Shown here piece after piece: positions 7,588 through 22,806 of a stretch of 64,000 nt of DNA. Source of the stretch: a virus (Duplodnaviria; Heunggongvirae; Uroviricota; Caudoviricetes); IMG/VR virus record IMGVR_UViG_3300047554_000527, positions 8,387 to 72,386 of that record, one strand, 5' to 3'. The position numbers were made by a program, and so were the translations under genes. Below the pieces are notes generated by a model. The model was given only the letters and a program-made list of their open reading frames with translations, did no database searches and was not told the DNA's origin. Positions within the stretch are counted from its first letter, which is position 1. Each line of letters begins with the position of its first letter.

Positions 7588-8188
7588 TGTTGAACGCAGA
7601 GTCGTTGATATCAGTTACAAAGAAAAAATAGGACACCTTAGTTCTAATCTTAATGCTGTTAATATCATCGAAGAAATTTATAAAACAAAAAAGTCCGGTG
7701 ATCCTTTTATCCTAAGTTCAGGTCATGCTGCTCTTGCACTATATGTTGTGCTAGAAAAATACGAGGGTCAAGATGCTGAAAAACTTTTTTACAAGCACGG
7801 AGTACATCCTCACCGAGATCTAGGTTCAGGCATTCATTGCAGTACAGGCAGTCTCGGAATGGGTCTTACAGTAGCCACAGGCTATGCACTAGCAGATAGA
7901 ACAAGAGATGTTTATTGTTTAATCAGCGACGGTGAAGCAGGAGAAGGATCAATTTGGGAAGCACTACGATTTGCTTATGAAGCAAAACTAGATAACCTAA
8001 AAGTATATGCTAACGTAAATGGTATGATTGCCTATGATATGATTGATAGAGAATATATCAATACTAGACTAAAAGCATTCCTGCCCAACATTAGAATTAG
8101 AAATACAGAACCTCCTAAGTGGCCTTTTGCCGAAGGTATCTTAACTCACTACTATGTATTAAAGCCAGAGGACTACGAATCACTATGA
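7580..8188 (+). CDS. transketolase N-terminal subunit (ThDP-binding)
   Basis: motif LISDGEAGEGSIWEA (TPP-binding GDG-type), 202 aa split-transketolase arrangement. Confidence 0.6.
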   Translation: MNDVERRVVDISYKEKIGHLSSNLNAVNIIEEIYKTKKSGDPFILSSGHAALALYVVLEKYEGQDAEKLFYKHGVHPHRDLGSGIHCSTGSLGMGLTVATGYALADRTRDVYCLISDGEAGEGSIWEALRFAYEAKLDNLKVYANVNGMIAYDMIDREYINTRLKAFLPNIRIRNTEPPKWPFAEGILTHYYVLKPEDYESL

Positions 8189-8667
8189 GAAATTTATTTG
8201 GAGAACTGTTAGCCGACAGTATCAAGAACGATGAACGCATTTGGCTACTTACAGGTGATCTAGGTTTTGGTGTCCTCAACAAAGCTCGTGAAGTTGCCCC
8301 CAATCGTGCATACAACGTAGGAGCCGCAGAACAGTTAATGTTGGGTGCTGCCGTAGGTCTTACACATAATCACAAGATTCCTATTTGCTACAGCATTACA
8401 CCATTTGTTATCTTTAGACCTTACGAGTATCTTCGTAACTATCTTAACCACGAATTTGCTCCAGTTAAACTTGTTGGTGCCGGAAGAGATAAAGACTACG
8501 GACACTTAGGATTTAGTCATTGGGCTATTGATGATGAAGATGCCCTTCGAGCATTTCCACATATCAAAATCTTCAAACCAAAAGACGAAGCAGAGTTAAG
8601 TAGTATGTGGCAGGACTATTTGTATAACGATCAGCCTTGCTATTTGAATATTTTAAGGAAAGCATGA
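8185..8667 (+). CDS. transketolase C-terminal/pyrimidine-binding subunit
   Basis: MRNLFGELLADS... start at ATG 8185 overlapping upstream TGA (ATGA); transketolase Pyr domain-like; 8119 extension judged non-coding. Confidence 0.55.
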   Translation: MRNLFGELLADSIKNDERIWLLTGDLGFGVLNKAREVAPNRAYNVGAAEQLMLGAAVGLTHNHKIPICYSITPFVIFRPYEYLRNYLNHEFAPVKLVGAGRDKDYGHLGFSHWAIDDEDALRAFPHIKIFKPKDEAELSSMWQDYLYNDQPCYLNILRKA

Positions 8668-9602
8668 AGAAGATTGTTTATGTTACAGGCTGCTTAGGCT
8701 TTATCGGTTACCACGTAACTAAAGCCTGCTTGGATAAAGGTTGGTATGTTCGTGGAGTTGATAAGGGTACCTATGCCGCTAATTGGAACTTATTGCCCGA
8801 ACTAGAAAGTTACGATAACTTTACGTTTGAAGAAACAGATATTAACGACTTAGATAGGATCTACGATTGTGATTATTTTATTAACACAGCCGCAGAAACT
8901 CATGTTGATAACAGTCTAGAAGAAAGCGATAGTTTTGTTCATAGCAACATCAACGGCGTACATCATATTCTTAAATTAATCAATCAAAAGAAATATCGCA
9001 AGCCTGTATTCCTGCACTTCAGCACAGACGAAGTATATGGAGACATCGAAGTAGGCAGTCACACAGAAAAAGATAAACTGTGTCCAAGCAATCCTTATAG
9101 TGCAACTAAAGCGGCTGCTGACATGCTGGTAATGGCCTGGGGTCGCAGTCACAAACTGCCATACATTATTGTACGCCCTACTAACAACTACGGTATTGGG
9201 CAGTACGTTGAAAAGCTAATTCCCAAGACCTGCAAGTTTTTAACAGTAGGTAAGAAGATTGATCTTCATAATAATGGAACTCCTGTACGTACTTGGTTAC
9301 ATGCTAGTGATACTGCTCGTGCCGTTATTACTATTATCGAAGCAGGAGTTGTAAATGAGATCTACAACATCAGTGGTCCATATCAAACTGAGAATATTAA
9401 TGTTGTTCAACAGATCTTAAAGTTGCACGGACACAAAGGTGATCCTTTTGAGCACATTACTCACATGGAACGTCAAGGACAGGATGTTCGTTACAGCATA
9501 GATGACAGTAAGTTAAGAGCACTAGGTTGGAAACCAAAAGCAGTGTTTGAAGATGAACTGAAAAAGATCGTCAAATACTACAAGAACAATTTTATTTGGT
9601 AA
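8664..9602 (+). CDS. dTDP-glucose 4,6-dehydratase-like NAD-dependent sugar dehydratase/epimerase
   Basis: VTGCLGFIGYHV Rossmann motif, YxxxK (YSATKAA) catalytic motif; ATGA overlap with upstream gene. Confidence 0.65.
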   Translation: MKKIVYVTGCLGFIGYHVTKACLDKGWYVRGVDKGTYAANWNLLPELESYDNFTFEETDINDLDRIYDCDYFINTAAETHVDNSLEESDSFVHSNINGVHHILKLINQKKYRKPVFLHFSTDEVYGDIEVGSHTEKDKLCPSNPYSATKAAADMLVMAWGRSHKLPYIIVRPTNNYGIGQYVEKLIPKTCKFLTVGKKIDLHNNGTPVRTWLHASDTARAVITIIEAGVVNEIYNISGPYQTENINVVQQILKLHGHKGDPFEHITHMERQGQDVRYSIDDSKLRALGWKPKAVFEDELKKIVKYYKNNFIW

Positions 9603-10101
9603 GTCCTTGATCGTAGTTAATGTTATCAAACTCAATAACACTAGCACGGGGACTCCTTAACCAAAAATCGACTGCATCAACAACTTGACTGTAGGGTATA
9701 GAATCGTACTTTAACCAGTTTTCTAAAAAGCCCATTTTCAATAATAACATTGGATATGGGCTGTTCTTTTTTAAGCGTCTATGTTCTATCTCTAATGCTT
9801 TCTTTGCTACTGCATAATCCATATACTCTTTTTTAGGATAGTCAGCAGCCATAGAACCGCAGGATACGATAGGCAATTTGTTTCCAAGTTTTGACAATAG
9901 TCTTACTTGTGCCATGCCAGCGTAAGCATTGTTTATAAACAGGTCAGATGATTCTACAATCTCTACTACCTGATCAATATTTTCAGGTAAAGTGTAACCG
10001 TTTGAACGGGCAAGACCTATGACAGTATCCCCACGTTCTACAAAGTAATTAAAAAAGGCGAGCCCGAGCCCGCCTGTGTGTCCTGTTATAACGACTCGCA
10101 T
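9592..10101 (-). CDS. short-chain dehydrogenase/reductase-like NAD(P)-binding protein
   Basis: ITGHTGGLGLAF glycine-rich motif, YAVAK (YxxxK). Confidence 0.45.
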   Translation of the reverse strand: MRVVITGHTGGLGLAFFNYFVERGDTVIGLARSNGYTLPENIDQVVEIVESSDLFINNAYAGMAQVRLLSKLGNKLPIVSCGSMAADYPKKEYMDYAVAKKALEIEHRRLKKNSPYPMLLLKMGFLENWLKYDSIPYSQVVDAVDFWLRSPRASVIEFDNINYDQGLTK

Positions 10102-10616
10102 TAGTTATTTAAAACTTTTGCAACTGAGTTCATAACAGAAGCGATCCTACCGATATCGCGAAGTTGTTCTACTGTGTAGCCTTCTTGCTTGAGTGTGTCG
10201 TAATGTGCCTTAACACAGAAATGACACTTACCGACAATACTAGCTGCTAGGCTGTATGCTTCAAAGCGAGCCTTAGTAGTTCCGCCGTGACTGGCAATTG
10301 CATTCATACGTAACTGTGCCGGCAAGCCTTTCAACTGCTCGTCATCTGCCATTTCAACAAATGGATACCATGTGTTGTTCTGTGCCATAATGCTTGCGGC
10401 TGTAAGAGCAGCATCTGCTTCCTTGCGGTCTGCAATCTGAGCATGTACCCATGTCCAGAACTTACTATTGCCTGTAGCAAACGCGGCTGCAACTGCAACA
10501 GCTTCTGCTTCTTCTACTGGCAATGTGCTACGCTTGATTACTGCATCTAAATTTAGTTTAGTATCCTTGGCGTAGTCTGGAATTGTTTCTTTAAGTGCAT
10601 CTACCCATGTTGTCAT
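10101..10616 (-). CDS. carboxymuconolactone decarboxylase-family protein (AhpD-like alkylhydroperoxidase)
   Basis: CHFCVKAH CxxC-H motif characteristic of AhpD/CMD family; adjacent to peroxiredoxin. Confidence 0.55.
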   Translation of the reverse strand: MTTWVDALKETIPDYAKDTKLNLDAVIKRSTLPVEEAEAVAVAAAFATGNSKFWTWVHAQIADRKEADAALTAASIMAQNNTWYPFVEMADDEQLKGLPAQLRMNAIASHGGTTKARFEAYSLAASIVGKCHFCVKAHYDTLKQEGYTVEQLRDIGRIASVMNSVAKVLNN

Positions 10617-10617
10617 T

Positions 10618-11238
10618 TTAATATTTCCCCGATGATAAAACGATTTGACAAATATGTTCTAATCGTTCAATGTGTTCAAAAGCCCGCCATGGGCTAGTAT
10701 CTATAGCCACTACTCCATGTCCCTTAATGCCTACAATGTCATAACTGATGTTGCCATAGTCGTCAAGTTTTAAATTCTTGTGACACTGGTCGGCAAGTTC
10801 TTGACTAATAGGAGGTACATCTCCTACATTAGGTGCTACCTTAGTATAGCGACTGAGTTCAGGGAAGCTGTCGGCAAGACTGCTCAACTCAATGCCGCGA
10901 TGCATAGCCGCAACACAATAAGTAGGATGTAGATGAACTACTACTCTAACATCATCACGATGCTGCCCCATATTTCGTTGTAATCCAAAATGTAACGGAA
11001 TTTCTCCACTGGGTTTTAAGTTAGCACTGATGTCAGTGTAGAACTCTTCTTGCCACAACATGCCATGAATACTGATCTTTTTAAATTGATCAGGTTGCAT
11101 AGTTTGCTTACGGACGCCACTGGGTGTGATATAAAAGTGATCACGATCGTGATGACGAATTGAAACATTGCCATCACGACTGGTAATCCAGTTGCGTCTA
11201 TATGCTTCAACTAATGTGTCGCATATAGTTTCTAACAT
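10618..11238 (-). CDS. class II aldolase/adducin-family protein
   Basis: VVVHLHPTYCVAAMHRG metal-binding His motif and N-terminal ...GNVSIR...ITPSG... pattern; start at ATG 11238 (TAATG overlap with peroxiredoxin stop), alternative 11271. Confidence 0.5.
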   Translation of the reverse strand: MLETICDTLVEAYRRNWITSRDGNVSIRHHDRDHFYITPSGVRKQTMQPDQFKKISIHGMLWQEEFYTDISANLKPSGEIPLHFGLQRNMGQHRDDVRVVVHLHPTYCVAAMHRGIELSSLADSFPELSRYTKVAPNVGDVPPISQELADQCHKNLKLDDYGNISYDIVGIKGHGVVAIDTSPWRAFEHIERLEHICQIVLSSGKY

Positions 11239-11771
11239 TATAGAGTCTCGCCGCCAACTGTGCGGTTGCAAGCACAGAGTTCGCCAGTCTGAAGCGCATC
11301 AAGAACACGAAGTGTTTCTTCCGGTGAGCGACCAACGTTCAAGTTATTGACAGTAACGTGCTGGATAATGTTGTCTGGATCAACAATAAATGTTGCACGA
11401 AGTGCGGCACCTGCTGGAGCATAGAATACACCTAGCTGCTCAATCAAGCTCAACTCGCCACGCTGTGTATCAGCAAATTGTGTGTGAGTAATCTTAGCAA
11501 GATCAGGGTGTGCTTTTTGCCATGCTAGTTTGCAGAACTCATTGTCTGTGCTACCTGTTAGCAATACTGCATCGCGATCTTTAAAATCACCTGCTAATTT
11601 GTCATAGGCAACAATTTCTGTTGGGCATACGAATGTGAAGTCTTTAGGGTAATAGACAACGACTTTCCACTTGCCTTCGAAAGACTTTTCAGTAATGTCA
11701 AAGAACTGATCGCTACCTGGGTTAATTCCAACTACGCTAAATGCTTCTAATTTATCGCCAACTGTTTTCAT
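11238..11771 (-). CDS. peroxiredoxin (AhpC/TSA family, 2-Cys type)
   Basis: FTFVCPTEI peroxidatic Cys motif; start at ATG 11771 preceded by GGAGAA SD; upstream part of 219-aa ORF judged non-coding. Confidence 0.75.
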   Translation of the reverse strand: MKTVGDKLEAFSVVGINPGSDQFFDITEKSFEGKWKVVVYYPKDFTFVCPTEIVAYDKLAGDFKDRDAVLLTGSTDNEFCKLAWQKAHPDLAKITHTQFADTQRGELSLIEQLGVFYAPAGAALRATFIVDPDNIIQHVTVNNLNVGRSPEETLRVLDALQTGELCACNRTVGGETL

Positions 11772-11911
11772 TTGTGTTTCTCCTTGTGTGTAAATGAAAT
11801 AGGAATTTCTAATTCCATAGTTAATTGTACATTTATTTACGCTATAAATCAAGGTTTTTTCATTGATTTTTCCTATGACTGAAATAGCTATGCTCAAAGA
11901 TAAACTCCCAA

Positions 11912-11919
11912 TATAAATA
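11912..11919 (+). promoter_or_regulatory. T4-type late promoter motif TATAAATA
   Basis: exact TATAAATA about 25 nt upstream of ATG 11945. Confidence 0.4.
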
Positions 11920-11944
11920 CAGTTACACTACAATTGGAGCGAAC

Positions 11945-12226
11945 ATGAACGAAATTTTCAAGTTAATTGGAGATTTAGGTTTCCCAATAGCCGTTGCCTT
12001 CGCTGGCGGCTATTTCGTATATCTAACCATTAAATTACTTTTGCAAGGCGTGCTTGGCAGTATCAAAGGCATGGCTGGTATTATTGTTGCACTCGATAAT
12101 CGAGTCAAAACAATGAACCACGATGTTGTACGTATTGATACTATTGTAAGTAATGCCCTTGGCCTACGTCCCGACGTTGATCGTATTGCTCGTGCAGACG
12201 GTAAGAACGATGCAAGGAGAGACTAA
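11945..12226 (+). CDS. small membrane protein (paralog of 12528..12950)
   Basis: N-terminus MNEIFKLIGDLGFPIAVAFAGGYFVYL aligns with MNEIVDLVNKYGFPIVMAVGMGYIIKY of downstream gene; one TM segment. Confidence 0.5.
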   Translation: MNEIFKLIGDLGFPIAVAFAGGYFVYLTIKLLLQGVLGSIKGMAGIIVALDNRVKTMNHDVVRIDTIVSNALGLRPDVDRIARADGKNDARRD

Positions 12227-12414
12227 TGCTACACTTTGATTATTCTTGGGATTTATACCCTGATAGAATCATACTAGACGAAGAACTTAACATAGACAAG
12301 TTAGGTTGGCAAGGCGGCGACTATTTTAAATTAGTCAATATTAACGGTAAGGCACAGTTAATCAAAATAGATCCTTTGGTAAAATTTTTAAAGGAAGGAA
12401 AACAAAATGGGTAA
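12226..12414 (+). CDS. hypothetical protein
   Basis: 62-aa ORF, 1-nt overlap with upstream gene. Confidence 0.3.
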   Translation: MLHFDYSWDLYPDRIILDEELNIDKLGWQGGDYFKLVNINGKAQLIKIDPLVKFLKEGKQNG

Positions 12415-12527
12415 GTGGGAAAAATTCTACGAAGCACAACCACAACATATTAAAGATTGGATGAATCAACCGAGAGCTATCTGGTATGACAGTGATATGT
12501 GGCGTGCAGGATTAATAGGAGCCGCAT

Positions 12528-12950
12528 TTGGATTCCTCATCGGCCTATGCTTCTAAGGAGAACAAAATGAATGAGATTGTTGATTTAGTTAATAAGTACG
12601 GATTCCCTATTGTGATGGCTGTAGGTATGGGCTACATCATTAAGTATGTGTGGGAGTGGAGTACGAAAGAAGTTAAGCCAGTTATTAGCGAAGCTAACAC
12701 TGTGTTGATTGCTCTAATTGATCGTATTCGTATGTTAGATAATGACCTTATTAGACTTAACCAAAAGGTGAATACGGTATTACACCTACGTGGTAAGATC
12801 ATTGAAAGCGATCGTGTATTAGAACAGGTCAAAGTTGAACGAGAAGCTGCAAAGCAATTTGATAAAGCAGTACGAATGGATGATCCAAAGTCGAAGAAGA
12901 AAGACGATAAAAGCGAGGATGACAAAGCAGCAGCTTCAGGTGAAGGATAA
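12528..12950 (+). CDS. small membrane protein with charged C-terminal tail (paralog of 11945..12226)
   Basis: shared N-terminal TM motif; C-terminal KKKDDKSEDDK tail. Confidence 0.5.
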   Translation: MDSSSAYASKENKMNEIVDLVNKYGFPIVMAVGMGYIIKYVWEWSTKEVKPVISEANTVLIALIDRIRMLDNDLIRLNQKVNTVLHLRGKIIESDRVLEQVKVEREAAKQFDKAVRMDDPKSKKKDDKSEDDKAAASGEG

Positions 12951-12983
12951 TTTGAGGTTTTGCTAGATTGTGAAGCCATACGA

Positions 12984-13015
12984 CACCCTCTACGGAGGGT
13001 GATCTTATGATGTTT
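12984..13015 (+). terminator. terminator-like hairpin (CACCCTC-tacg-GAGGGTG)
   Basis: perfect 7-bp stem right after stop of 12528..12950; weak U-tract. Confidence 0.3.
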
Positions 13016-13418
13016 GCTGAGTTGCTCGGCGCACACTTGACAGTAGGTATTTGATTTTCACTCTTCTGGGCTCTGTACCTTACCCCACCTACTACGACTT
13101 TTAAAGGAACTGCGGTGTCACTGTTCCTATGAGAGTATAGAAAATCTTTTCAACTATTATGACAATCCAAACGTTTCTCGCCAGCGGGCAGACGTTTAAG
13201 CATCCTCTCGGGTAGTGGATTGAAAATGCCCTCGCAATGAGGCAGGGTCAGTGGGTCGCACGTCAGAACCTTGACCAACAGAAAGTTACTGGCGCTGTCA
13301 CGCCTTTAGTTGCGAATGATGGAAGTGTGTAAGTGTAGTTACATTATACAGGTTATCCAAAATGATCGCGACCGAAATGGCAATATATTTTGGATAGTTT
13401 AATCGACTTAAATACTAT

Positions 13419-14138
13419 ATGTTAGAAATTTTATTATACACACTCGTCGTCACACAGATTACTATTGCATCTGTCACATTGTATCTGCACCGTGGTCAAG
13501 CACACAGGGCAGTAACATTCCATCCTGTAGTAGATCATTTCTTTAGATTATGGCTATGGCTTACAACAGGCATGAATACCAAGGAGTGGGTTGCTATCCA
13601 CCGTAAGCATCACCAAGGTAGCGACACTCCTGAAGATCCGCATAGTCCTAAAGTATATGGACTATGGAGAGTACTATTCGGTGGAGCCTTTCTATATGTT
13701 AAGGCATCTAAGAATAGAGAGATGATTGAGAAGTTAGGAGTAGGTACTCCTGACGATTGGGTAGAACGCAAAATATATACAGCGCATCCTTGGTTAGGTA
13801 TCCTAACAATGCTGATCGTAGATCTTGTTCTTTTCGGGGCTGTGGGTATAGTTGTATGGGGCGTTCAAATGATATGGATCCCGTTCTGGGCTGCAGGAGT
13901 AATTAACGGCCTAGCACATTCTGTAGGATATAGAAATCATGAAGTACCTGATACTAGCCGTAATTTGTTGCCTATTGCTATTTGGATTGGCGGTGAAGAA
14001 CTCCATAACAACCACCATGGAAAAGGTTCAGCAGCGAAATTTAGTCATAGATGGTTTGAGTTTGACATTGGGTGGTTCTACATCAAAACCTTAAGCGCTA
14101 TTGGGCTTGCAAAGGTTAGACCATCGAGCGCCGTTTAA
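13419..14138 (+). CDS. membrane fatty-acid (acyl-lipid/acyl-CoA) desaturase
   Basis: histidine boxes HRKHH and HNNHH, multiple TM segments. Confidence 0.7.
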   Translation: MLEILLYTLVVTQITIASVTLYLHRGQAHRAVTFHPVVDHFFRLWLWLTTGMNTKEWVAIHRKHHQGSDTPEDPHSPKVYGLWRVLFGGAFLYVKASKNREMIEKLGVGTPDDWVERKIYTAHPWLGILTMLIVDLVLFGAVGIVVWGVQMIWIPFWAAGVINGLAHSVGYRNHEVPDTSRNLLPIAIWIGGEELHNNHHGKGSAAKFSHRWFEFDIGWFYIKTLSAIGLAKVRPSSAV

Positions 14139-14238
14139 ACTAACGGCGTTCATCCACTTATCAACTTCGCTATCACCTGCTAACATATAAGGCAGGTAGT
14201 ACCAATATAGGAATAATACTACGGGCCAACTAGCAGGA

Positions 14239-16299
14239 TCACTTGCTAGTCGCTCTGTAAATTCCGTCCCAATCTTTTGGTAGATCATGAGTTCTCATCT
14301 CCTCGATACGTTCTAACCACAGTTCGTAATAATGATCCATCTGACCATCAAACTCGCCCATTAGTTCTCGACACTGCTCTGCTGCCTTGTCCCACTGTTG
14401 TTTTCTATAGTAGGCTAACATTAGATCGTGTAGCTCTTTTGCCATGACATATTCTGCCATAGCTCCGGCATCTGTGTGTAACAGAGGTGTGTAGATGTTT
14501 AAGCCGATTGCCTTGCCTTTAACAGCAATACAATCTAACTCTAGACAGAAAAAGTCGTCTTTGACTTCATCATATGTTGAAGGACCGATGATTACTAATA
14601 CACCGTAACCTTTTGTCTGCCCTTCTAAACGGCTGGCAACTGATACAGGGTCACCTAATACATCGTAACCCATTTTGCCCTGTGCGCCAATGTTACCTAC
14701 TAGGATCTTACCTGTATTAACACCTGCACCCATACCTACTGGAGGTTTGCCAATGGCTTCTAATTGCTTGTTGAATTCTTCAACAGCCTTAATCATTTCA
14801 ATTGTAGTTTTAACAGCGCGGTAAGCATGACGATCGTCATCTAATGGAGCGCCGTGAATATGTAAGGATGCATCGCCGATAAACTTGATTAGGCATCCGT
14901 CGTTAGCAAATACAGGCTGAGCAATAGCAGTCATGTATTCGTTCATGATCTTAGTAAAGCCTTCTACATCTGCTCCATACTTCTCACCTAGTCCTGTAAA
15001 GTTACGCATGTCTGTCATAACTGCGGTCAGTATCTTTTCCTCACCGCCCAGCTTGATAAGATCTGGATTCTTTTGTAAGCGCTCAACTATAACTGGACTT
15101 ACATAACTTCCAAACTGTTTCTTGATCTGTTGCTTCTGTAAGAACTCACTTACAAACTTGACGCCATAGGCATGCAGAGCGACCAATACTGTGCCAGCGG
15201 TAAAGACAGTAGTGTCGAATAAGAATAAAAAGTTATTGAAAGCGTAGCGACTAGCAAGATAGCCCCCAACAGCAATAACAATTGTCGTTGCCAATCCAAC
15301 ATATACATACCTCGTTAAAAATAGTAAAATCAATCCTGCTACTAGAATAGCAATAATTTCTACACCGTCAGCGTAGTCTGGACGTTGTATAACAACATTA
15401 TTGATCATAGTTCCGACAACTGCTGCCTGTACTTCGTGTGGCCAAACTGCTCCTAGTGAAGTTGGTAAAGGGTTGCCAATACCTGCGGCTGTCGGTCCTA
15501 TGATAACAATAGCCTTTTCTAAATCTTTTGGTAACTTGCTTAAACTAAAGCTACGACTCTGCTGACTCCAGTCAATCCATACGCGACCTAGACTGTCTGT
15601 AGTAACAGGACCGTAAGCAGGAATACGCATTTTCTCTACACCGTTCTCATTCAACTTTACTTGGAAGGTCGAATCGCCGGCCGCTACGCGGAGTGTTTCC
15701 ATAGCTAGACTAGGGTATAACTTACCATCAACTGTGACAATCAAAGGTAATCGACGATTTACACCATCTACTTCGGGCAATGTGCCAGTTATGCCAACCC
15801 CTACTGCTGAATTTTCTAGTGCAGGTACGTTTGCAATAAGTCCCGGGTATTGAACAATTTGATCTAAGAACTCTGGGCCTAGTACAGCCGATCCTGGAAC
15901 ACGTGGTGTATTCTTAGTTTGTTGTGCAGGAGCACTGCCTAGAACTACTGGGAACTCTTTTAGAGTTTGACCCAGCTGACTGTCACCACCTGTACGGTCT
16001 GCTTCTGGCATGAGTACGTTAAGTACAACAAGGCCTGCGTTCCTCTGATATAGATCTCGTATAATTTCACTGTATCGTGCTCTAGGTAGTGGCCACTGTC
16101 CGTATTTGTCCAATGCTGCCTCATCAATATTTACAGTTACAATATTGTTGTAAGTTGGCTCTTTGGCAGTAATTAATGTGTCAAAATAACGTAGTCTTAC
16201 GCTTTCGACAAAAGTGGGATCTGCTACACGTATGCCCAGTACTAACGCTAAGGTCAGTAGAGCAGTCCAGGGGCTGGTTAGAACTTTTTTAAACATCAA
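14239..16299 (-). CDS. CHASE2 sensor domain-containing class III adenylate/guanylate cyclase
   Basis: N-terminal signal/TM then periplasmic domain, TM cluster, C-terminal cyclase core (...MTDMRNFTGL..., ...FIGDASL...). Confidence 0.7.
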   Translation of the reverse strand: MMFKKVLTSPWTALLTLALVLGIRVADPTFVESVRLRYFDTLITAKEPTYNNIVTVNIDEAALDKYGQWPLPRARYSEIIRDLYQRNAGLVVLNVLMPEADRTGGDSQLGQTLKEFPVVLGSAPAQQTKNTPRVPGSAVLGPEFLDQIVQYPGLIANVPALENSAVGVGITGTLPEVDGVNRRLPLIVTVDGKLYPSLAMETLRVAAGDSTFQVKLNENGVEKMRIPAYGPVTTDSLGRVWIDWSQQSRSFSLSKLPKDLEKAIVIIGPTAAGIGNPLPTSLGAVWPHEVQAAVVGTMINNVVIQRPDYADGVEIIAILVAGLILLFLTRYVYVGLATTIVIAVGGYLASRYAFNNFLFLFDTTVFTAGTVLVALHAYGVKFVSEFLQKQQIKKQFGSYVSPVIVERLQKNPDLIKLGGEEKILTAVMTDMRNFTGLGEKYGADVEGFTKIMNEYMTAIAQPVFANDGCLIKFIGDASLHIHGAPLDDDRHAYRAVKTTIEMIKAVEEFNKQLEAIGKPPVGMGAGVNTGKILVGNIGAQGKMGYDVLGDPVSVASRLEGQTKGYGVLVIIGPSTYDEVKDDFFCLELDCIAVKGKAIGLNIYTPLLHTDAGAMAEYVMAKELHDLMLAYYRKQQWDKAAEQCRELMGEFDGQMDHYYELWLERIEEMRTHDLPKDWDGIYRATSK

Positions 16300-16303
16300 C
16301 TAT

Positions 16304-18316
16304 TTATTGACGTATAACGGTGTTACATCCTGCCGGATTAGTGCAACTTTGTATAAGAGTAAAGCTCTTTCCGCCTGATTGTTCTACATCAACAGTAGCG
16401 GCTCCGCCTGCATTTGTAACGTCTATTCTTGCGTTATTTCCGCCTGAACCGTATTGATTTACCAGTACATTATGCCCGTTACCTGTCATTCTTACATCTA
16501 AATAGTGCTGTCCAGCGCCGGACTGTGTAGTAGTTAAAGTGTTGTTATCACCATTTACAGTGCTGAATAATAGTCTATTGTTATTGTTGCTCTGCGTGTG
16601 ATTGACGATATTGTTATTACCACTAATTGTTGTTTCTGTGTAGTTGGTTCCGATAGTGTTAGTCTGGCTAGATGTTAGGCTGTTGTTATATCCATTTACA
16701 TCTGCTTTGATATAGTTCGATCCTACTTGTGTGATACCAATAGTATTTGTGCCAGCACCGTCGAGAGTTAGCTCTGTACGATTTTTACTGCCAGATAAGT
16801 TGATATTAACTGTGTTATTATCTCCACCTATTTGTGTAACATGTACAGCATTGTTATATGTTTGTGCTGTATTGGCCCAAGTTGAGATTCTAGAATTTTG
16901 AGCAGTCCTATCGTTGTTGTTAGTAAATGATGTGCCGCTTTGTAGTGTTTGATTGCTAGGAGAGCCCGACTGTGTAATAGTTCCGCCTTGAATAGTAGGA
17001 GCTGCTGCCGCCTGTACTGGATCAACTGGAGTAGTAGTTCCGCCTGTCGCTGAACTTGTTGTTGAATTATTAGCATCGTAGTAATATGTAATTTCACTGA
17101 TCTGCATACTGTCGCAGTCTAATCCACAGCCTGTTCCTGCTTTTGTACTAGGAAAGAAAATATAGTAATAAACGTAAGCAGAAGAATTAGTAACGTTAAT
17201 CATACTGCTAGTTGTTAAACGACTATCAGTTAATGATAGGTTACCTTCTTGTATTAGTACCCAATTTACACCATCGTTACTACCATATAACTTATAGCTT
17301 GTGGGATCTCGCCCACTAAAATCGTTAGCGGTAGTAATAGTAAAACCATTGACTACTCGACCTGTGTTTAGTTTAACAGTAACACCTGCATTTAATTTGT
17401 CAAAGTTTAAGTACTTAGTGTTTGGATTATTGTCGAACGCATTGGCAGCACCTTCACCTGCCGGACTGTTATTACTCGTTGGCCATATGTTAGTAATTTT
17501 AACTGTGGAGTTATCAAAATATATAGGTGTAGGTTGAGGAGTTGGAGTTCCAGCAGTAGCGCCTGTACCAGCATTAGTTACGGTCATTGTGTTGTTATAT
17601 CCGCCAGCCTGGCCGCTAGTTGTTCCACCTGTCGCACTTGGACCTCCACCGTTGGCGTTAGCAACTAAGCCAACTGTGCTAGAACCTGGCACACCATCAC
17701 TATTAACAATACAGGCATTTGATCCTCCCCAAGCACCTTGGCAAGCACCAAATCCTGGACTACTTGTCCAACCTTGTGCTGTTATGCCGTTGTAAGGTCC
17801 AAACTCTGGGTTGTATGTTAAGTTGCCTCCCCCGTTTAGTGTAAAGGTAGGAGCACGATACCAAGGACCATAATCCCCTGCCCAATAACTTCCATCAATG
17901 CCGTACATGCTAACTTTAGCATAAGCAACCTGTGATGCTTGTGCTGAAGTTAATGTTGAACTAACAGTAAGTGTTGTCCAGGGCACACTTGTATCAATAC
18001 ACGGATTACCGCAAATAGCATTTGGGTTTGGTAAGTTAGCACTATGGGCAGTTGCTACTTGAGTTATTAATCCTCCACTGCTGTTGTAGAATTCTATCTT
18101 AACGTTGGCTGTATCACTTTGGCCGGCACGGCCGCCACCGTTGTGTGCCAGGACACTAAAGGTAAATGTACCTCCAGCCTGCATAGCAGAATTAAAAACT
18201 ACATGCTGACTAATTGTTGTAGTAACATACGCAGTGGCAATAGCATTATAACCTGTCTGAGCTTGCGAACTAAAACAGAGTGCTAGTAGAAAAAGTTGTA
18301 GTAAATATTTTATCAT
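16304..18316 (-). CDS. secreted protein with F5/8 type C (discoidin) domain and C-terminal curlin (CsgA-like) repeats
   Basis: signal peptide MIKYLLQLFLLALCFSSQA; discoidin-like NAFDNNPNTKYLNF...YKLYGSNDGVNW; repeats VNQYGSGGNNARIDVTNAGGAATVDVEQSG matching curlin Q-x-G-x-G-N-x-A pattern. Confidence 0.6.
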   Translation of the reverse strand: MIKYLLQLFLLALCFSSQAQTGYNAIATAYVTTTISQHVVFNSAMQAGGTFTFSVLAHNGGGRAGQSDTANVKIEFYNSSGGLITQVATAHSANLPNPNAICGNPCIDTSVPWTTLTVSSTLTSAQASQVAYAKVSMYGIDGSYWAGDYGPWYRAPTFTLNGGGNLTYNPEFGPYNGITAQGWTSSPGFGACQGAWGGSNACIVNSDGVPGSSTVGLVANANGGGPSATGGTTSGQAGGYNNTMTVTNAGTGATAGTPTPQPTPIYFDNSTVKITNIWPTSNNSPAGEGAANAFDNNPNTKYLNFDKLNAGVTVKLNTGRVVNGFTITTANDFSGRDPTSYKLYGSNDGVNWVLIQEGNLSLTDSRLTTSSMINVTNSSAYVYYYIFFPSTKAGTGCGLDCDSMQISEITYYYDANNSTTSSATGGTTTPVDPVQAAAAPTIQGGTITQSGSPSNQTLQSGTSFTNNNDRTAQNSRISTWANTAQTYNNAVHVTQIGGDNNTVNINLSGSKNRTELTLDGAGTNTIGITQVGSNYIKADVNGYNNSLTSSQTNTIGTNYTETTISGNNNIVNHTQSNNNNRLLFSTVNGDNNTLTTTQSGAGQHYLDVRMTGNGHNVLVNQYGSGGNNARIDVTNAGGAATVDVEQSGGKSFTLIQSCTNPAGCNTVIRQ

Positions 18317-19428
18317 CTCTGTACAATAGTAATAATTGTATTACCGCCCGAATTAACTCTGTTCTTAAATTCAATACTACCCTGAATCTGTGTTATTACA
18401 CTGTTTTGTGTAAGAGGAGTTGTGACACATTGTAAGTCACTACCGTTATCTCTACAAAGACCTACTTGACCTTCGTCTTTGGTTACAACTATTCCGCTGG
18501 ATCTACGCCAGTCGGGCAATACACTATCTACATCATCTTTTAGATAATCTTCATCTAATCCATTTCCAATAATGTCAAACAAACTGTCTAAGAAATGATT
18601 GTCTAAAAAGTTACGAGTTAGTCTATCTTGAAAGAATTGTGCGTTCTGTTGATCTAGTTTGTTTTCTAATCCTTGCTCTCTTAAGAAATCGACATCTAAT
18701 ACATTAACTGTCGAAGCTGAATCTTTTTTGCTTGCTTGTTTTAATTCTAGGGGTGGGCTAAGAATTAAAAGATTGCTCATAGCATCTTCACTTAGATTTA
18801 AAATTATTGGTCTAGTAGGTTGAGCACTTCTGCTATTAACCTTAGTTGCTTGGAAAGGTTGATTAAGAATAACTTGCCCAACGTCAGTTTCAACAATAAT
18901 AGTGCCAGTAATACAGTTAGCTTCTATATCACGTTTAGATCTAGTAGGACGGTCGTTGGGACAACTAGGTAATAGTACAACTGTGCTAGCACCTACTTCA
19001 TCTACTGTGGCTGTAAAATCTGTACCACGAACACTGATAGTAGCAGTAGGAGTATTAACAGCTACGTTTTGCGGCGAGTTTTTAGCAATTTGGCCGCTGG
19101 CGTACCTAACAGTGCCCAGTGCCACCTTAACGCCCAACTTACCAGCCTTACTTTTAGGATCATATACAAAGTCATCAATTACTAGTCTTGAGTTTTCATT
19201 AACCTGTACTCGAGTCTGATCCTCGAAGGTTATTCCAACTTTGCCCGCCGCTGTCTTTACTGAATCGTTCATCTCGACTCCTGTGCCCTTGTTGGCCGTT
19301 AGCGTCGAGTTCTTGCGCTGTATGCTGGGAGGTGTGTTCAGCAACTCGGTCACTGTTCCTATATTGGCATGACTGCTCAATGAGAAACTCGTCAATAAGC
19401 CTAATAAGATTAAGCGACATAGTGTCAT
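18313..19428 (-). CDS. secreted protein of unknown function within curli-like operon
   Basis: signal peptide MTLCRLILLGLLTSFSLSSHA; 371 aa; 4-nt overlap with flanking genes. Confidence 0.4.
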   Translation of the reverse strand: MTLCRLILLGLLTSFSLSSHANIGTVTELLNTPPSIQRKNSTLTANKGTGVEMNDSVKTAAGKVGITFEDQTRVQVNENSRLVIDDFVYDPKSKAGKLGVKVALGTVRYASGQIAKNSPQNVAVNTPTATISVRGTDFTATVDEVGASTVVLLPSCPNDRPTRSKRDIEANCITGTIIVETDVGQVILNQPFQATKVNSRSAQPTRPIILNLSEDAMSNLLILSPPLELKQASKKDSASTVNVLDVDFLREQGLENKLDQQNAQFFQDRLTRNFLDNHFLDSLFDIIGNGLDEDYLKDDVDSVLPDWRRSSGIVVTKDEGQVGLCRDNGSDLQCVTTPLTQNSVITQIQGSIEFKNRVNSGGNTIITIVQR

Positions 19429-19436
19429 TTCACACC

Positions 19437-20219
19437 TTAATTACCAGTGATAATAGTGTATGTATTTCCGCTACCTGCTATAGCAAGATTAACAGTAGTA
19501 TCAATAGTACCACTTTGTGTGATAGTTGTGCTATTGCTAGAACCGGTAATGTTCAATGTAGCATTATGTCCATTGACTCCGCCTCCACTTTGAGTGATGC
19601 TGGTTACGTTAGTTGCTCCATTAGAAGTTAAATTAACTGTGCCTTTTGCACCAGTTAAGTTAAGAGTAGTAGAGTTTCCACCACCACCTGTTTGGTTAAG
19701 AATAACACTAATTTGATCAGCATTAAGAGTTGCTACAACACTGTTGTTAGCGCCACCTGCTGTATCGACTACAAAACTACTGTTAGAACCTAACATGTTT
19801 AAGTTAGCGATAGCACCATCGCCTGTTTGTTCAATATTAACAGTGTTGCTATTAGCTGTACCAGTTTCGGCATTGTTCATGTTGATTGTACCTACAGCAT
19901 TGTTACCTGTAACTTTATAGATTACACTAGTATCAACACCGCCGCTGGCTGTGGCTGTAACAACACCTAAGTTTAAAATGTTGCCGCTACCTATTTGTTC
20001 TACAGTTAATGTAACGTTATCACCTTTAATTTTAGACGGTGTGGTGTTACCTGTACCGGAACCTTGTATTCCTCGAATACGGTTTGATGCACCATCTTGT
20101 GTCATTGTAATAACACCATTGTCGCCTGCTTGATCGACGTAGATGGTATTGTCTGCCGCAAAAGATGACGCAGCAAACAATATCGCTATAACTGCCATAA
20201 CTTTATTCAGCTTCTTCAT
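19437..20219 (-). CDS. secreted curlin-repeat protein (CsgA/CsgB-like amyloid subunit candidate)
   Basis: signal peptide MKKLNKVMAVIAILFAASSFA (start 20219); repeated ITQSGGGVNGHNATLNITGSSNSTTITQSG units; Gly/Asn/Thr/Gln-rich. Confidence 0.55.
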   Translation of the reverse strand: MKKLNKVMAVIAILFAASSFAADNTIYVDQAGDNGVITMTQDGASNRIRGIQGSGTGNTTPSKIKGDNVTLTVEQIGSGNILNLGVVTATASGGVDTSVIYKVTGNNAVGTINMNNAETGTANSNTVNIEQTGDGAIANLNMLGSNSSFVVDTAGGANNSVVATLNADQISVILNQTGGGGNSTTLNLTGAKGTVNLTSNGATNVTSITQSGGGVNGHNATLNITGSSNSTTITQSGTIDTTVNLAIAGSGNTYTIITGN

Positions 20220-20281
20220 ATATACTACCAGTTCTTTTGGAACTGTCTCCTTGTTGGGGGAATTATGTATCATTCCCCGTT

Positions 20282-21193
20282 TTATTTGGTCCTAATTTCT
20301 TTGCTTCCTTCAGCATTTTTTCCGTTGCCGGACTGTTCCGTTGGGGGAGTTGCTTCTGCGGCTCCTTTACTCTCGGTCGTCTTTTGAACCAGCTCATTTT
20401 TATCTCCTTTGTAGTTCCAAAGCCCTTTACGAGCTCCATCTTTAATTAGCTCAACTACTCCGGCTTCGATTGCGGCCTTGACAGCATAAGTGCCCGGCTC
20501 GTTAATCGTTAAACCTGCTTCACCCTCAAACGCTTTAGTTCCCATATCAAAAAACTTCAATGCTGTTACCGCATCAGCACTACTGATGATTGTTTTTTGT
20601 ACGGTTACTGATGTAAGAACTTTACCAGTATTCACGCTAACTGCTCGCAAACTGATAGTAACTACATCCTGACTCCACTGTGTCTGTTTGCCTATTCCAA
20701 AAACTCTGGCTCCGATGCCACCGCTTTTAATAGAGCTATCATACCCAATAATACCGCCTTCTATAATAATCCCTGCAAACTGCATGGGCATTAAAGGTTT
20801 TGCGTTGTTGCCTTCATATGCTTCGCGCATCTGACGGATAATTAATCTTTCTTTAGTTAAGTTGTCAATACCTACACGCTCAACAACATCAAACCAACGA
20901 CCGCCACCTACATCTTGTAGGGCTTTAATCAAGAAGCTTTCCGCCCCTTGTGTTACTGCTGTACTTAAACTAGCAATGTTAGCCTGAGGGCGACGTTGTC
21001 CTGTTAGATCTCTAAAACTATAAACTGCTACACTTACTGGCCTTTCTGCTGCCGGTAATGGAACGGTATCAAATTCTTTCTGCATTACGCTAGAAGGAAT
21101 TGTTGGCATCTCTTCAAGAAGCCCATCTTGCTGTGTTATTGCACAGCCTGTTAATAAACTTGTGATTGCTAGAGTTAATAGTGTCTTTTTCAT
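20282..21193 (-). CDS. csgG: curli production assembly/transport lipoprotein CsgG
   Basis: lipobox LLTGC; extended colinear similarity to E. coli CsgG (...VAVY.F.D.TGQ..., ...A.VMVEGSIIGY.SNVKSGGVGARYFGIG..., ...NEPV..C.M.AIE.GV..LI.DG...GLW). Confidence 0.8.
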   Translation of the reverse strand: MKKTLLTLAITSLLTGCAITQQDGLLEEMPTIPSSVMQKEFDTVPLPAAERPVSVAVYSFRDLTGQRRPQANIASLSTAVTQGAESFLIKALQDVGGGRWFDVVERVGIDNLTKERLIIRQMREAYEGNNAKPLMPMQFAGIIIEGGIIGYDSSIKSGGIGARVFGIGKQTQWSQDVVTISLRAVSVNTGKVLTSVTVQKTIISSADAVTALKFFDMGTKAFEGEAGLTINEPGTYAVKAAIEAGVVELIKDGARKGLWNYKGDKNELVQKTTESKGAAEATPPTEQSGNGKNAEGSKEIRTK

Positions 21194-21194
21194 A

Positions 21195-21683
21195 TTATAC
21201 TCCAGGAATTACGAAACTACTTAACGGAACATCAATTTGTGTATTAATGCCCGGGCCGATAACAGTTAATCTAATCATTTCATTAAGATCAGCATCGACT
21301 ACTTTTTGCCAACTAATTCTGTTACCTTGGAAATCTATTTCACCCCTACATTGATCAACAGGAGTAGAAGTAGTACAACCATTGTTGGCAAACATAGCAG
21401 TAGCTACGTTTTGGCTGATCTGTGCGTAGATACGCGACTCTAAGTTACTGATAAACTTAGCTAAGTTAGTGTTCTTTTTGTCTGCTATTTCTTTATCGAT
21501 AGCAGCTTGAATTTTGTCTTGTAAAGCCTTTCTGCGTGTAGCTTCTTGGTTCTCAATAGTTAAGACGTGACTGCTATAGCCTGCGCCGTTAAACGCAGGG
21601 CTTTTAAACGTAAAATCGTTAATTGGTGCAGCCGTTGCTGTTAGTGTTGCAGACAAGGCCAGACCGAGAAATATTAATCGCAT
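21195..21683 (-). CDS. CsgF-like curli assembly protein
   Basis: signal peptide; mature N-terminus INDFTFKSPAFNGAGY resembles CsgF TMTFQFRNPNFGGNP; immediately upstream of csgG. Confidence 0.45.
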   Translation of the reverse strand: MRLIFLGLALSATLTATAAPINDFTFKSPAFNGAGYSSHVLTIENQEATRRKALQDKIQAAIDKEIADKKNTNLAKFISNLESRIYAQISQNVATAMFANNGCTTSTPVDQCRGEIDFQGNRISWQKVVDADLNEMIRLTVIGPGINTQIDVPLSSFVIPGV

Positions 21684-21762
21684 CCTAAATCCCCAGTGTA
21701 GTGTAATTGTATTTACAATTACCTGAGAATTGATTTTGTATGCAGTTAAAGTTTAATCTAGA

Positions 21763-22800
21763 TTAAACAGTTGGAGAAATACCTGTTTGTGGTGCAGGTG
21801 TAGTTCCCATAGGACCTTTAGGAGGAACAGGCGCACCTATTTTAGGTTTTGACACATCTAATGCAGGCTTCATAGGTTGTGCCTTTGCAGGCTTTGGTAA
21901 AGGATTCCACGGACGACCTGTGCTAGGATACGAAGAAATACGTGCTCCTGCTATACCAAAGTTTCCTCTATCTGCAGAGAATCTAACTATTAACACAGGA
22001 TCATATCCGTTTGCAGGAATATCTCCATTGTGCCAGGTATGTGCTCCAGTTAGAACAAAAGAACCTCTAGTACCTTTTTTAAGTGTAGGGTGTCCCTGCA
22101 ACACTAAATCTACATTACTACGACCAGGAGCACCGCCAAAGTCTTTTCCAAAAACAGTGAGAGCTTTTAATTTAGGATTCTTGATAGGAACCCCATATGT
22201 TGGACCTCTCGGAAATTGATCTCCGAATGCTGCCTTAATGCCTTTGACAAATGCCGATACTTCTGGATCTGAGGCAAGATGATCAACTCCGCCCCAATGA
22301 CCGAATCCTTTAGGTGTTGTGCCATCTTTTAAACTTATCCAAGCTACCGGGGTGCCTTGATCATCTACTATTTCTACGTCTGCTTTAACGTTTCCTGGAA
22401 CCTTAACAGCACCAGCGGCATTAACTACGCGAGTACCTATAGCTACTTTAATAAACGGTTGCCCGTTAAGATGCTCTTTAATAGTAGTATCGAGAGCAAG
22501 AATTTGCCCTTCTTCTTTTTCTAATCTTCCGCCTTGAGCTTCTGCGGGTTTTACCAAAACTGTAGCACCGTCGAAATGAATTACTTTACCATCAGCGGAG
22601 ACAGTAGATCCCGGTAAAGTTCTAGCAATATTTTGAACGCTGTCGAAACGATTTGCCGAAGGAACAACTACTTTAACTGTTGTACCTGTTTTCTTTTCAA
22701 CATCAAACCCCATGGGTTTAATATAGGAAATTAGTTCATCTGCTGATGTTTTTTCTGAAATAATTTCGATAGTTTCGTATAAAAAGTCACGTGCTCGCAT
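21763..22800 (-). CDS. hypothetical protein with Pro-rich C-terminal tail
   Basis: 345 aa; C-terminus PKPAKAQPMKPALDVSKPKIGAPVPPKGPMGTTPAPQ. Confidence 0.35.
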   Translation of the reverse strand: MRARDFLYETIEIISEKTSADELISYIKPMGFDVEKKTGTTVKVVVPSANRFDSVQNIARTLPGSTVSADGKVIHFDGATVLVKPAEAQGGRLEKEEGQILALDTTIKEHLNGQPFIKVAIGTRVVNAAGAVKVPGNVKADVEIVDDQGTPVAWISLKDGTTPKGFGHWGGVDHLASDPEVSAFVKGIKAAFGDQFPRGPTYGVPIKNPKLKALTVFGKDFGGAPGRSNVDLVLQGHPTLKKGTRGSFVLTGAHTWHNGDIPANGYDPVLIVRFSADRGNFGIAGARISSYPSTGRPWNPLPKPAKAQPMKPALDVSKPKIGAPVPPKGPMGTTPAPQTGISPTV

Positions 22801-22806
22801 AATAAG

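Follow-up and report, generated by a model that had tools for sequence, protein, structure and literature searches.

The analysed stretch of viral DNA, 64,000 nucleotides long and hereafter called the window, carries on its minus strand a block of curli-type (T8SS) envelope genes followed by a gene for a predicted membrane-bound nucleotidyl cyclase (Table 1). In the ORF listing of the window the cyclase is a single ORF of 686 aa that opens with TTG, followed directly by an ATG. A 685-aa NCBI protein of 100% identity begins at this second codon, so the true start is probably the ATG at 16296. The earlier note had described a transmembrane (TM) segment, a periplasmic CHASE2-like domain, a TM cluster and a C-terminal class III core, and this layout is confirmed by Pfam, by hydropathy and by an AF2 model of the monomer (mean pLDDT 92.4). 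CHASE2 (PF05226) covers residues 16–324 and scores 128.8 bits (E 3.6e-37; cutoff 26.3), whereas Guanylate_cyc (PF00211) covers residues 425–596 and scores 57.2 bits (E 2.1e-15; cutoff 21.9). From hydropathy and the model, TM1 spans about residues 10–27 and is followed by a periplasmic alpha/beta domain (28–312), three TM helices (313–378), a long linker helix, the catalytic domain (421–600) and a helical tail (605–686) that is found in bacterial relatives too and is absent from HTVC008M. The sensor thus scores above the Pfam threshold and has the one N-terminal and three C-terminal flanking TM helices of the CHASE2 family, and the catalytic domain is class III in both sequence and fold. The full-length BFVD match is labelled COG4252, and phrog_35576 also matches over the full length (E 8.5e-201). 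The linker helix lines up with the equivalent segment of Cya2/IlaC (6fht) and is presumably akin to the cyclase-transducer element.

Table 1. Features of the cyclase gene and the adjoining curli-type block (window coordinates)
Feature	Coordinates	Strand	Basis
CHASE2-sensor class III adenylate cyclase (predicted)	14239..16299	-	whole ORF including stop codon
N-terminal cytoplasmic stub and TM1, residues 1-27	16219..16299	-	hydropathy; AF2 helix 10-26
Periplasmic CHASE2 sensor domain, residues 28-312	15364..16218	-	PF05226
Three transmembrane helices, residues 313-378	15166..15363	-	hydropathy, AF2
Cytoplasmic linker helix, residues 379-420	15040..15165	-	invariant F396, Y399
Class III catalytic domain, residues 421-600	14500..15039	-	D430, K472, D476, K542, D546, S553, R557
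Helical C-terminal tail, residues 601-686	14242..14499	-	conserved
Secreted 670-aa protein, F5/8-type-C (CBM32-like) with C-terminal curlin-like repeats	16304..18316	-	Pfam, BLASTP
Secreted FecR-domain protein	18313..19428	-	Pfam FecR E 1.4e-11; phrog_37870; synteny; bacterial FecR-cyclase adjacency
Curlin-repeat (CsgA/B-like) fibre protein	19437..20273	-	CsgA/CsgB models, 8c50
CsgG outer-membrane lipoprotein pore	20282..21193	-	Pfam E 6e-50; NCBIfam
CsgF	21195..21683	-	Pfam E 4e-7; phrog_35372
Perfect palindrome GTAATTGT-AAAT-ACAATTAC	21703..21722	.	inside the 79-nt gap upstream of csgF

The carrier is an uncultured large marine phage. An 18-tRNA array and the presence of NAMPT, rIIA (phrog_612, E 2e-128) and further phage families make its phage identity clear, and together with the phrog_35576 match they bear out the phage origin proposed for the cyclase gene. 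As regards membership of the pelagiphages, the GC content lies near 41% and no cultured phage is close; the carrier differs from the HTVC008M-type pelagimyophage. Megablast of 12 kb around the cyclase against cultured phages gave no match, the rIIA protein is only 32% identical to that of any cultured phage, and relatives of the window lie on contigs of 373–383 kb.

The genes follow the order csgF-csgG-csgA/B-FecR-(csgA/B)-AC of the viral module, all on one strand of a phage genome. As the earlier note had it, the cyclase lies 4 nt behind the last amyloid gene, in the same orientation; the gap reads ATAG, and the gene before it ends at 16304. This neighbour is a second fibre gene, within a variable slot; over its C-terminal 200 aa its product shows a relationship to the 278-aa curlin-like protein (BLASTP E 3e-5). 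The latter has weak matches of its own, to CsgA/CsgB models (NCBIfam E 5e-7) and to 8c50, a curlin-repeat protein of solved structure (E 9e-4), and its probable start is Met19 (20219). The palindrome upstream of csgF is unique within the window, with 0 expected by chance, and may serve the block as an operator or an RNA hairpin. It does not match the half-site spacing of CRP sites. Scans of positions 13000–25000 for sigma-70 promoters and intrinsic terminators gave no more sites than shuffled sequences, and the only copy of the T4 late-promoter motif TATAAATA in the window lies outside the curli block.

Four catalytic residues, Asp430, Lys472, Asp476 and Arg557, show no variation among 204 phage sequences and almost none among 142 cluster representatives; most glycine positions of the catalytic domain are likewise invariant across the 204, and Asp430 and Asp476 align with the metal-binding Asp residues of Cya2, CyaB and CyaC. 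When the specificity residues are inspected as the earlier note had proposed, Lys472 and Asp546 form an adenine pair of the ATP type, and the cyclase is predicted to use ATP; the guanylate cyclase Cya2 has Glu and Gly at these positions. The same note had named loss of the metal Asp pair or of the transition-state Asn/Arg as the mark of a dead domain. The metal pair and the Arg are in place, but the Asn is replaced by Ser553, which aligns with the transition-state, ribose-positioning Asn of all solved relatives, a residue that normally hydrogen-bonds ribose O4′ (PMC9223806).

This serine is fixed in 188 of the 204 phage sequences and strictly coupled to Asp546 (188/188); Asn is present in the remaining 16 viral sequences and in every one of the 78 bacterial relatives. 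Since it is fixed and coupled in this way, and the rest of the catalytic set is invariant, Ser553 does not look like a mark of decay and a dead domain appears unlikely; we infer that the cyclase is enzymatically active. Yan et al. reportedly found in 1997 that the equivalent N1025S mutation cuts the kcat of a mammalian adenylate cyclase 30–100 fold, so the activity could be low or altered. The second specificity position carries Thr or Ser, the class IIIb mark, in the bacterial relatives and in the 16 phage sequences, and the window has Asp546 there instead, which suggests descent from class IIIb-like ancestors with loss of the mark. Altogether nine substitutions are fixed in the 68 sequences of this type (D/S), and none of them occurs in the remaining 16 viral or in the 78 bacterial ones. 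They cluster in the nucleotide pocket and comprise T/S546D, N553S and seven more, among them D471I, A480H and W482H, by which IDK[YF]IGDAxMAFW becomes LIKFIGDASLHIH. To judge from these alignments, the pocket of the window cyclase is a phage-only catalytic variant.

Mean identity among 203 phage homologues is 72% for CHASE2, with 28 invariant residues, and likewise 72% for the cyclase domain, and the linker helix is the most conserved segment at 88%. Purifying selection therefore acts on the sensor and catalytic halves alike, and both sensing and catalysis are selected. In an NJ distance tree without bootstrap, 84 viral cyclases are monophyletic against 78 bacterial ones, with none of the latter inside. 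The catalytic-domain tree also groups the D/S type into one clade, whose members are all viral. In the whole-protein tree the D/S and T/N states are interleaved; repeated switching between them was considered and discarded, since the domain trees point to a single origin with recombination, and the sensor and catalytic halves thus appear to have recombined.

The FecR-like protein starts with a signal peptide, and its sole domain is a periplasmic FecR domain at residues 57–151. Since it has neither the anti-sigma N-terminal domain nor a TM helix, and no sigma factor or TonB-dependent transducer gene lies inside the curli block, its label as an iron regulator is not supported by the sequence. 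It is a candidate periplasmic partner of the T8SS, of CHASE2, or of both. A PDB sequence search returned no real match, and its AF2 model (pLDDT 43, from homologues all at least 68% identical) is unusable. Its evolutionary distances correlate with those of CsgG at r 0.87 and with those of CHASE2 at 0.45 (partial r 0.15). This weak mirror-tree signal gives no support to FecR-CHASE2 co-evolution, and within phages FecR seems to belong to the T8SS block and to be no dedicated partner of the cyclase. Podovirus modules often retain FecR without the cyclase (PMC9599517).

The nearest bacterial relatives of the phage cyclase are Alphaproteobacteria with at most 34% identity. A FecR-domain gene lies within 8 kb of the cyclase in 30 of 80, and in about 12 of those 30 directly upstream on the same strand, whereas none of the 80 has csgG or csgF in this neighbourhood. 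From these neighbourhoods the cyclase probably came from an older FecR plus CHASE2 sensor pair, to which, most likely, the phage would have joined the curli secretion set.

The curli-cyclase arrangement has already been published for SAR11 phages, and the window is a further example. Wittmers et al. (2022) described the viral module of T8SS, FecR and AC, reported its genes to be expressed in ocean metatranscriptomes, and proposed both the rewiring of host cNMP signalling and the coordination of the amyloid module that the earlier note put forward again; CHASE2, the catalytic residues and the bacterial FecR adjacency are not mentioned there (PMC9599517). Pelagibacter phage HTVC008M (AGE60353) and Methylophilales phage Melnitz (gp104, QZI94833) have the order of the window, csgF-csgG-curlin-FecR-(curlin)-cyclase, and share its full-length cyclase architecture at 35% and 42% identity, respectively; HTVC008M, retaining the ancestral S/N pocket, differs from the window and Melnitz, which have the D/S type. 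The design of a TM helix, CHASE2, three TM helices and a class III cyclase is also that of CyaD1, CyaD2 and CyaK of the alphaproteobacterium S. meliloti, which make cAMP upon an extracellular protein signal received via an outer-membrane beta-barrel; CyaD1 without CHASE2 is constitutive (PMC13001267, PMC5498481). The nearest bacterial relatives, often with CRP-like genes adjoining, have a T/S plus Asn pocket where the window has D/S. The best sequence and fold matches are the class IIIb enzymes CyaB of P. aeruginosa (3r5g), Cya2 of Synechocystis (2w01) and CyaC of Spirulina (1wc1), with which the window shares the metal Asp pair, the Arg and a linker element before the domain. It departs from them by Asp for Thr/Ser, Ser for the ribose Asn and His/His for Ala/Trp after the second metal Asp, and their sensors (MASE2, none, others) differ from CHASE2. 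In the Burkholderia BiofilmReg operon, which regulates biofilm, a response regulator, a LysM/FecR periplasmic protein and a CHASE2 histidine kinase are encoded together (PMC5192318). As in the window, a gene for a secreted FecR-domain protein adjoins that of a CHASE2 membrane sensor, and the Burkholderia locus is linked to a biofilm or surface phenotype; BiofilmReg has a histidine kinase output, no T8SS and a cellular locus, as against the cyclase, T8SS and viral setting of the window.

Taken together, it is reasonably probable that the protein is an inner-membrane, signal-gated CHASE2 receptor adenylate cyclase of the infected cell, likely making cAMP, whose gene ends the phage envelope block of CsgF/CsgG pore, curlin-repeat proteins and secreted FecR-domain protein. 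The periplasmic CHASE2 domain, held between TM1 and TM2–4, would control the cytoplasmic class III domain through the linker helix. The catalytic domain presumably acts as a homodimer, and its product would most likely be 3′,5′-cAMP. In this scheme the cyclase would inform the cytoplasm about conditions in the periplasm or at the surface. These could be the assembly of fibre or pore, contact or aggregation, or a protein signal from outside, and the signal may pass via the FecR-like protein in contact with CHASE2. A phmmer search with E. coli CRP as its single query found no CRP-like receptor in the window or within 10 kb on either side in 83 viral loci, and the same query did find bacterial neighbours of the cyclase relatives. 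As the phage loci yielded no such receptor, the nucleotide would probably be read by a host CRP-type or other cNMP-binding protein. Rather improbable, in our judgement, is a complete outside-in chain owned by the phage, running from the fibre/CsgG pore over a FecR relay and CHASE2 to the Asp546/Ser553/His480/His482 pocket. If it were true, the phage could use the nucleotide, cAMP or another, to sense what is happening at the cell surface, be it superinfection, damage to the envelope or aggregation ("sibling capture"), and could adjust its programme, for example the timing of lysis.

The redesigned pocket also bears on two other readings of the catalytic domain. The D/S domain may still bind metal-NTP and have taken on a new function, with a product or regulator other than that of its class IIIb-like ancestor (for example a cyclic nucleotide other than cAMP, or cAMP made with altered kinetics or altered dependence on bicarbonate or metal), and could serve a phage purpose such as interference with host nucleotide signalling or defence. 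This we regard as unlikely but worth weighing, given the nine clustered substitutions, the single virus-only clade and a weak similarity to PycC (E 8e-10). Identification as a Pycsar PycC defence cyclase itself is rejected: the PADLOC similarity is generic only, and close PycC homology joined to an adjacent cNMP-activated effector was not found. Pycsar cyclases have the Lys position replaced (PMC11224242). The loss of the Asn that contacts ribose O4′, together with that of the conserved Asp before Lys472 and an Arg-to-Lys change at 542, could instead mean a weak or inactive pseudo-cyclase that serves the envelope module as a scaffold or receptor, its domain kept for dimerization or nucleotide binding only. 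Such a role is very doubtful, since both Asp residues, Lys472, Arg557 and most glycines remain invariant in sequences down to about 35% identity, a constraint that would not be expected of a non-catalytic domain, and since the tie between Asn-to-Ser and Thr/Ser-to-Asp looks like compensated redesign, not decay.

The neighbourhood raises another alternative, that of an independent auxiliary cyclase which happens to lie by the curli block in a hypervariable island, with signal and targets unrelated to T8SS or FecR. The gap between FecR and cyclase indeed ranges between 3 and 6575 nt, and close relatives carry different cargo there (unrelated genes for GH19, DUF6321, a carbamoyltransferase and a GATase-like protein), the history of the cyclase is decoupled from that of FecR and CsgG, and pelagimyophage curli genes sit in a hypervariable region (PMC7029224). 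In one lineage (loci L044, L045, L048, L050 and L069) the cyclase adjoins genes for a D-Ala-D-Ala carboxypeptidase and a radical-SAM protein, and no T8SS lies within 10 kb of it. The variable slot and this lineage weaken a strict functional tie between cyclase and amyloid. We nevertheless give full independence little credence: csgG, FecR and cyclase keep their order and strand in 57 of 65 informative IMG/VR loci, over divergence down to about 35% identity; the order recurs in Melnitz, HTVC008M and jumbo-size contigs and, by report, in podoviruses (PMC9599517); and FecR-domain genes adjoin the bacterial relatives too.

The present results leave the basic picture in the literature unchanged, revise the interpretation of "FecR" as an iron regulator and sharpen experiments through the identity of the CHASE2 receptor, the curli-independent FecR near bacterial relatives and the virus-only pocket of most phage copies. 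The cyclase is the only component of the module with a predictable cytoplasmic output, and since a heterologous host allows cAMP to be measured, it is the most tractable entry point. Few auxiliary gene sets of ocean phages are as widespread as the curli-type secretion genes, which have been reported at all 65 GOV2.0 stations (PMC9599517).

From the ORF listing, it is clear that the cyclase gene is a single minus-strand ORF of 686 codons with a TTG start; since an ATG follows as codon 2 and NCBI-derived data contain a 685-aa protein with 100% identity (P0001), 16296 is its likely start. Pfam detects a CHASE2 domain at residues 16-324 (E 3.6e-37) and a class III cyclase domain at residues 425-596 (E 2.1e-15), both far over threshold, as the earlier note had proposed from the sequence alone, and PHROG 35576 matches the protein end to end. 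The layout in the table was derived from hydropathy and a confident AlphaFold model (mean pLDDT 92.4). The position of the gene behind a curli-like operon had also been described correctly: csgF, csgG, the curlin-repeat gene, the FecR-domain gene, the gene for the 670-aa protein and the cyclase follow one another on the same strand, with 4 nt between the stop of the upstream gene and the cyclase start.

Coordinates of genes, protein segments, catalytic residues and neighbouring features (L-numbers are loci used for comparison)
Feature	Position	Strand	Remark
CsgF	21195-21683	-	upstream of cyclase
CsgG lipoprotein pore	20282-21193	-	E 6e-50
Curlin-repeat protein	19437-20273	-	weak matches to CsgA/CsgB models and solved curlin-repeat protein 8c50
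Secreted FecR-domain protein	18313-19428	-	upstream of cyclase
Secreted 670-aa protein (second fibre gene)	16304-18316	-	F5/8-type-C carbohydrate-binding domain, curlin-like C-terminus
Cyclase	14239-16299	-
TM1	residues ~10-27
Alpha/beta periplasmic domain	residues 28-312
Three TM helices	residues 313-378
Long linker helix			leads into catalytic domain
Catalytic domain	residues 421-600
Three-helix C-terminal tail	residues 605-686
Metal binding	D430, D476		canonical Asp
Base reading	K472, D546		canonical Lys + Asp/Thr
Phosphate position	K542		canonical Arg
Ribose positioning	S553		canonical Asn
Transition state	R557		canonical Arg
Palindrome	21703-21722		before csgF
Fe_bilin_red-like ORF pair (phrog_7278)	22807-24155	-	two genes upstream of csgF
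Auxiliary metabolic gene run	7580-14138		downstream of cyclase
18-tRNA array	24-2408
tRNA-Pyl (ARAGORN label)	48345-48419	-	anticodon CTA, reading UAG
Melnitz cyclase	L001 9998-12049
HTVC008M cyclase	L002 9998-11833		without ~80-aa C-tail
Bacterial FecR-adhesin genes	L084 3335-7885; L093 1763-7840; L086 4027-7707		directly upstream of CHASE2 cyclase
Heme oxygenase/bilin reductase genes	L003 3872-5066; L164 4118-5986		upstream of csgF
Cyclase, radical-SAM protein, D-Ala-D-Ala carboxypeptidase	L045 9989-13921		in this order

The F5/8-type-C domain of the 670-aa protein is CBM32-like, with a GH92 mannosidase module as its best PDB match (E 1e-14), and its fusion to curlin-like repeats suggests a glycan-binding amyloid subunit; relatives occur as 581-aa versions. 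A perfect 8+8 palindrome, GTAATTGT-AAAT-ACAATTAC, present only once in the window, lies some 20 nt away from the ribosome-binding site, within the 79-nt gap that precedes csgF, and could be an operator or RNA hairpin controlling the curli block.

This gene arrangement is already known. By tblastn, full-length cyclase homologues were found in Methylophilales phage Melnitz (42% identity) and Pelagibacter phage HTVC008M (35%), whose records show the same six-gene order as the window (csgF, csgG, curlin, FecR/hypothetical, curlin/hypothetical, adenylate cyclase). Discussion in Zaragoza-Solas et al. 2020 (PMC7029224) and Buchholz et al. 2022 (PMC9004378) is limited to the CsgGF pore; in Wittmers et al. 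2022 (PMC9599517), a viral curli (T8SS) module that also contains FecR, an adenylate cyclase and a second CsgA/B gene is described for myo- and podoviruses, its origin is given as alphaproteobacterial, its expression in metatranscriptomes is reported, and a regulatory role is proposed for it. The observation in the earlier note is confirmed, and its interpretation of the cyclase, which is plausible, was already in print. CHASE2 and the catalytic residues are unmentioned in these three papers; new here are the CHASE2 identification, the bacterial FecR adjacency, the intact core catalytic set, a virus-only pocket redesign and evidence for domain-level recombination. The cyclase family is very abundant (7826 of 8000 scored candidates match at E<=1e-20), the best 120 matches having 72-100% identity. 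In one phage lineage (L045, also L044, L048, L050 and L069), genes for radical-SAM and D-Ala-D-Ala carboxypeptidase proteins come after the cyclase, and T8SS and FecR genes are absent within 10 kb of the cyclase.

We consider the window cyclase to be probably an inner-membrane receptor adenylate cyclase, that is, a regulated cAMP synthase. Alignment to Cya2, CyaB and CyaC identifies Lys472 and Asp546 as the adenine pair, the K/D combination named in the earlier note for ATP, in contrast to the Glu and Gly of the guanylate cyclase Cya2. The Lys position, altered in Pycsar pyrimidine cyclases (PMC11224242), never varies in the phage cyclases. A pseudo-enzyme appears quite improbable: of the residues whose loss would have indicated a dead domain, the metal-binding Asp430 and Asp476 and the transition-state Arg557 are present and, with Lys472, invariant across 204 phage sequences, although the canonical Asn, which hydrogen-bonds the ribose ring oxygen (PMC9223806), is Ser553. 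Conservation is the same in the CHASE2 sensor and the catalytic domain (72% each) and peaks in the linker (88%); together with the invariant core residues, this is the pattern that a working, signal-controlled enzyme would be expected to show, and not that of a decayed domain. A changed product or regulation in cyclases carrying Asp546 and Ser553 (D/S) is unlikely, if less so. We regard it as just as improbable as a pseudo-enzyme that the cyclase is a functionally unrelated neighbour of the curli block: among the 65 IMG/VR cyclase loci with enough upstream DNA, five have no curli block within 10 kb of the cyclase and two or three carry it inverted downstream, against 57 with csgG, FecR and cyclase in this order on one strand.

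For the regulated cAMP synthase, the S. meliloti CHASE2 cyclases provide the example, since they respond to an extracellular protein signal relayed by an outer-membrane protein, and removal of CHASE2 renders CyaD1 constitutive (PMC13001267, PMC5498481). By analogy, the periplasmic CHASE2 domain would gate cAMP synthesis via the linker helix. The input in the infected cell may be some state of the co-encoded envelope block; our confidence in each such further step is lower than in the regulated synthase itself. A CRP-like protein was not found in the window or 83 viral loci by a weak test (one query, +/-10 kb each); among the bacterial loci, by contrast, CRP-like ORFs occur in about a dozen, in several cases immediately after the cyclase gene.

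Ser553 is shared well beyond the window: Asp546 and Ser553 occur together in 188 of the 204 phage sequences; the other 16 have Thr/Ser546 and Asn553 (T/N), with no mixed cases. Asn553 is found in all 78 bacterial relatives and in 133 of 142 cluster representatives. Nine substitutions, fixed throughout the D/S group and seen in none of the other sequences, set this group apart; most of them lie in the hairpin bearing Lys472 and Asp476, where IDK[YF]IGDAxMAFW becomes LIKFIGDASLHIH. The two states are interleaved in the whole-protein tree and mixed in the CHASE2-domain tree, whereas the catalytic-domain tree, built with residues 540-560 removed, splits cleanly into 68 D/S and 15 T/N sequences with HTVC008M basal; distances of the sensor and catalytic halves correlate with r 0.43 only. 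The simplest reading, which we infer from distance trees without support values, would be that the D/S catalytic domain arose once within the viral clade and that the sensor and catalytic halves later recombined. The Melnitz cyclase, HTVC008M-like in its CHASE2 half and grouping with the D/S clade in its catalytic half, thus looks chimeric.

The bacterial scan (one genome per species) returned 80 cyclase loci, mostly from Alphaproteobacteria and with at most 34% identity to the window cyclase. With profiles made from the phage proteins, csgF and csgG were found in none of the 80 and a FecR-domain ORF within 8 kb of the cyclase in 30 (domain confirmed by Pfam), directly upstream on the same strand in about a dozen. 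In Bradyrhizobium and Methylobacterium, the sensor cyclase has as its upstream partner a gene for a FecR-adhesin fusion, an adhesin-like protein of 1200-2000 aa in which an N-terminal FecR domain precedes cadherin-like, Big_9 and RTX repeats. Since a FecR protein also adjoins a CHASE2 kinase in Burkholderia (PMC5192318), a FecR-domain protein and a CHASE2 receptor appear to have been paired in bacteria earlier, and the phage block appears to be this pair with a curli secretion set joined to it. Within phages, FecR distances follow CsgG (r 0.87) far better than CHASE2 (0.45; partial 0.15), and the FecR-to-cyclase space, 3-6575 nt long, serves as a variable cargo slot, so a direct FecR-CHASE2 relay is offered as conjecture. 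This possible trans-envelope relay and the pocket variant are the parts meriting experiment. The published 'iron regulator' reading of phage FecR is unsupported here, since the protein carries a signal peptide but no anti-sigma N-terminus.

The window is phage DNA, with an 18-tRNA array, rIIA, NAMPT, a NadR-like enzyme and other phage families. No cultured phage is a close relative: 12 kb around the cyclase gave no megablast match among them, and the rIIA of the window reaches at most 32% identity to theirs across most of the protein. The cyclase and FecR genes have relatives on 373-383 kb contigs, which makes a jumbo T4-like marine phage the probable source. The tRNA with anticodon CTA, far from the array, may be an amber-suppressor tRNA of a marine T4-like or jumbo phage. 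Two adjoining Fe_bilin_red-like ORFs lie near csgF; related loci have heme oxygenase and one or two bilin reductases there, immediately upstream in L003 and one gene off in L164 and L165, so that a pigment-synthesis set is consistently found beside the curli block. The metabolic run on the other side of the cyclase includes a split transketolase-like pair, an NAD-dependent epimerase/dehydratase, AhpD-like and class II aldolase-like proteins, a peroxiredoxin and a fatty-acid desaturase convergent with the cyclase, and this set flanks the cyclase in L164 and L165 too.
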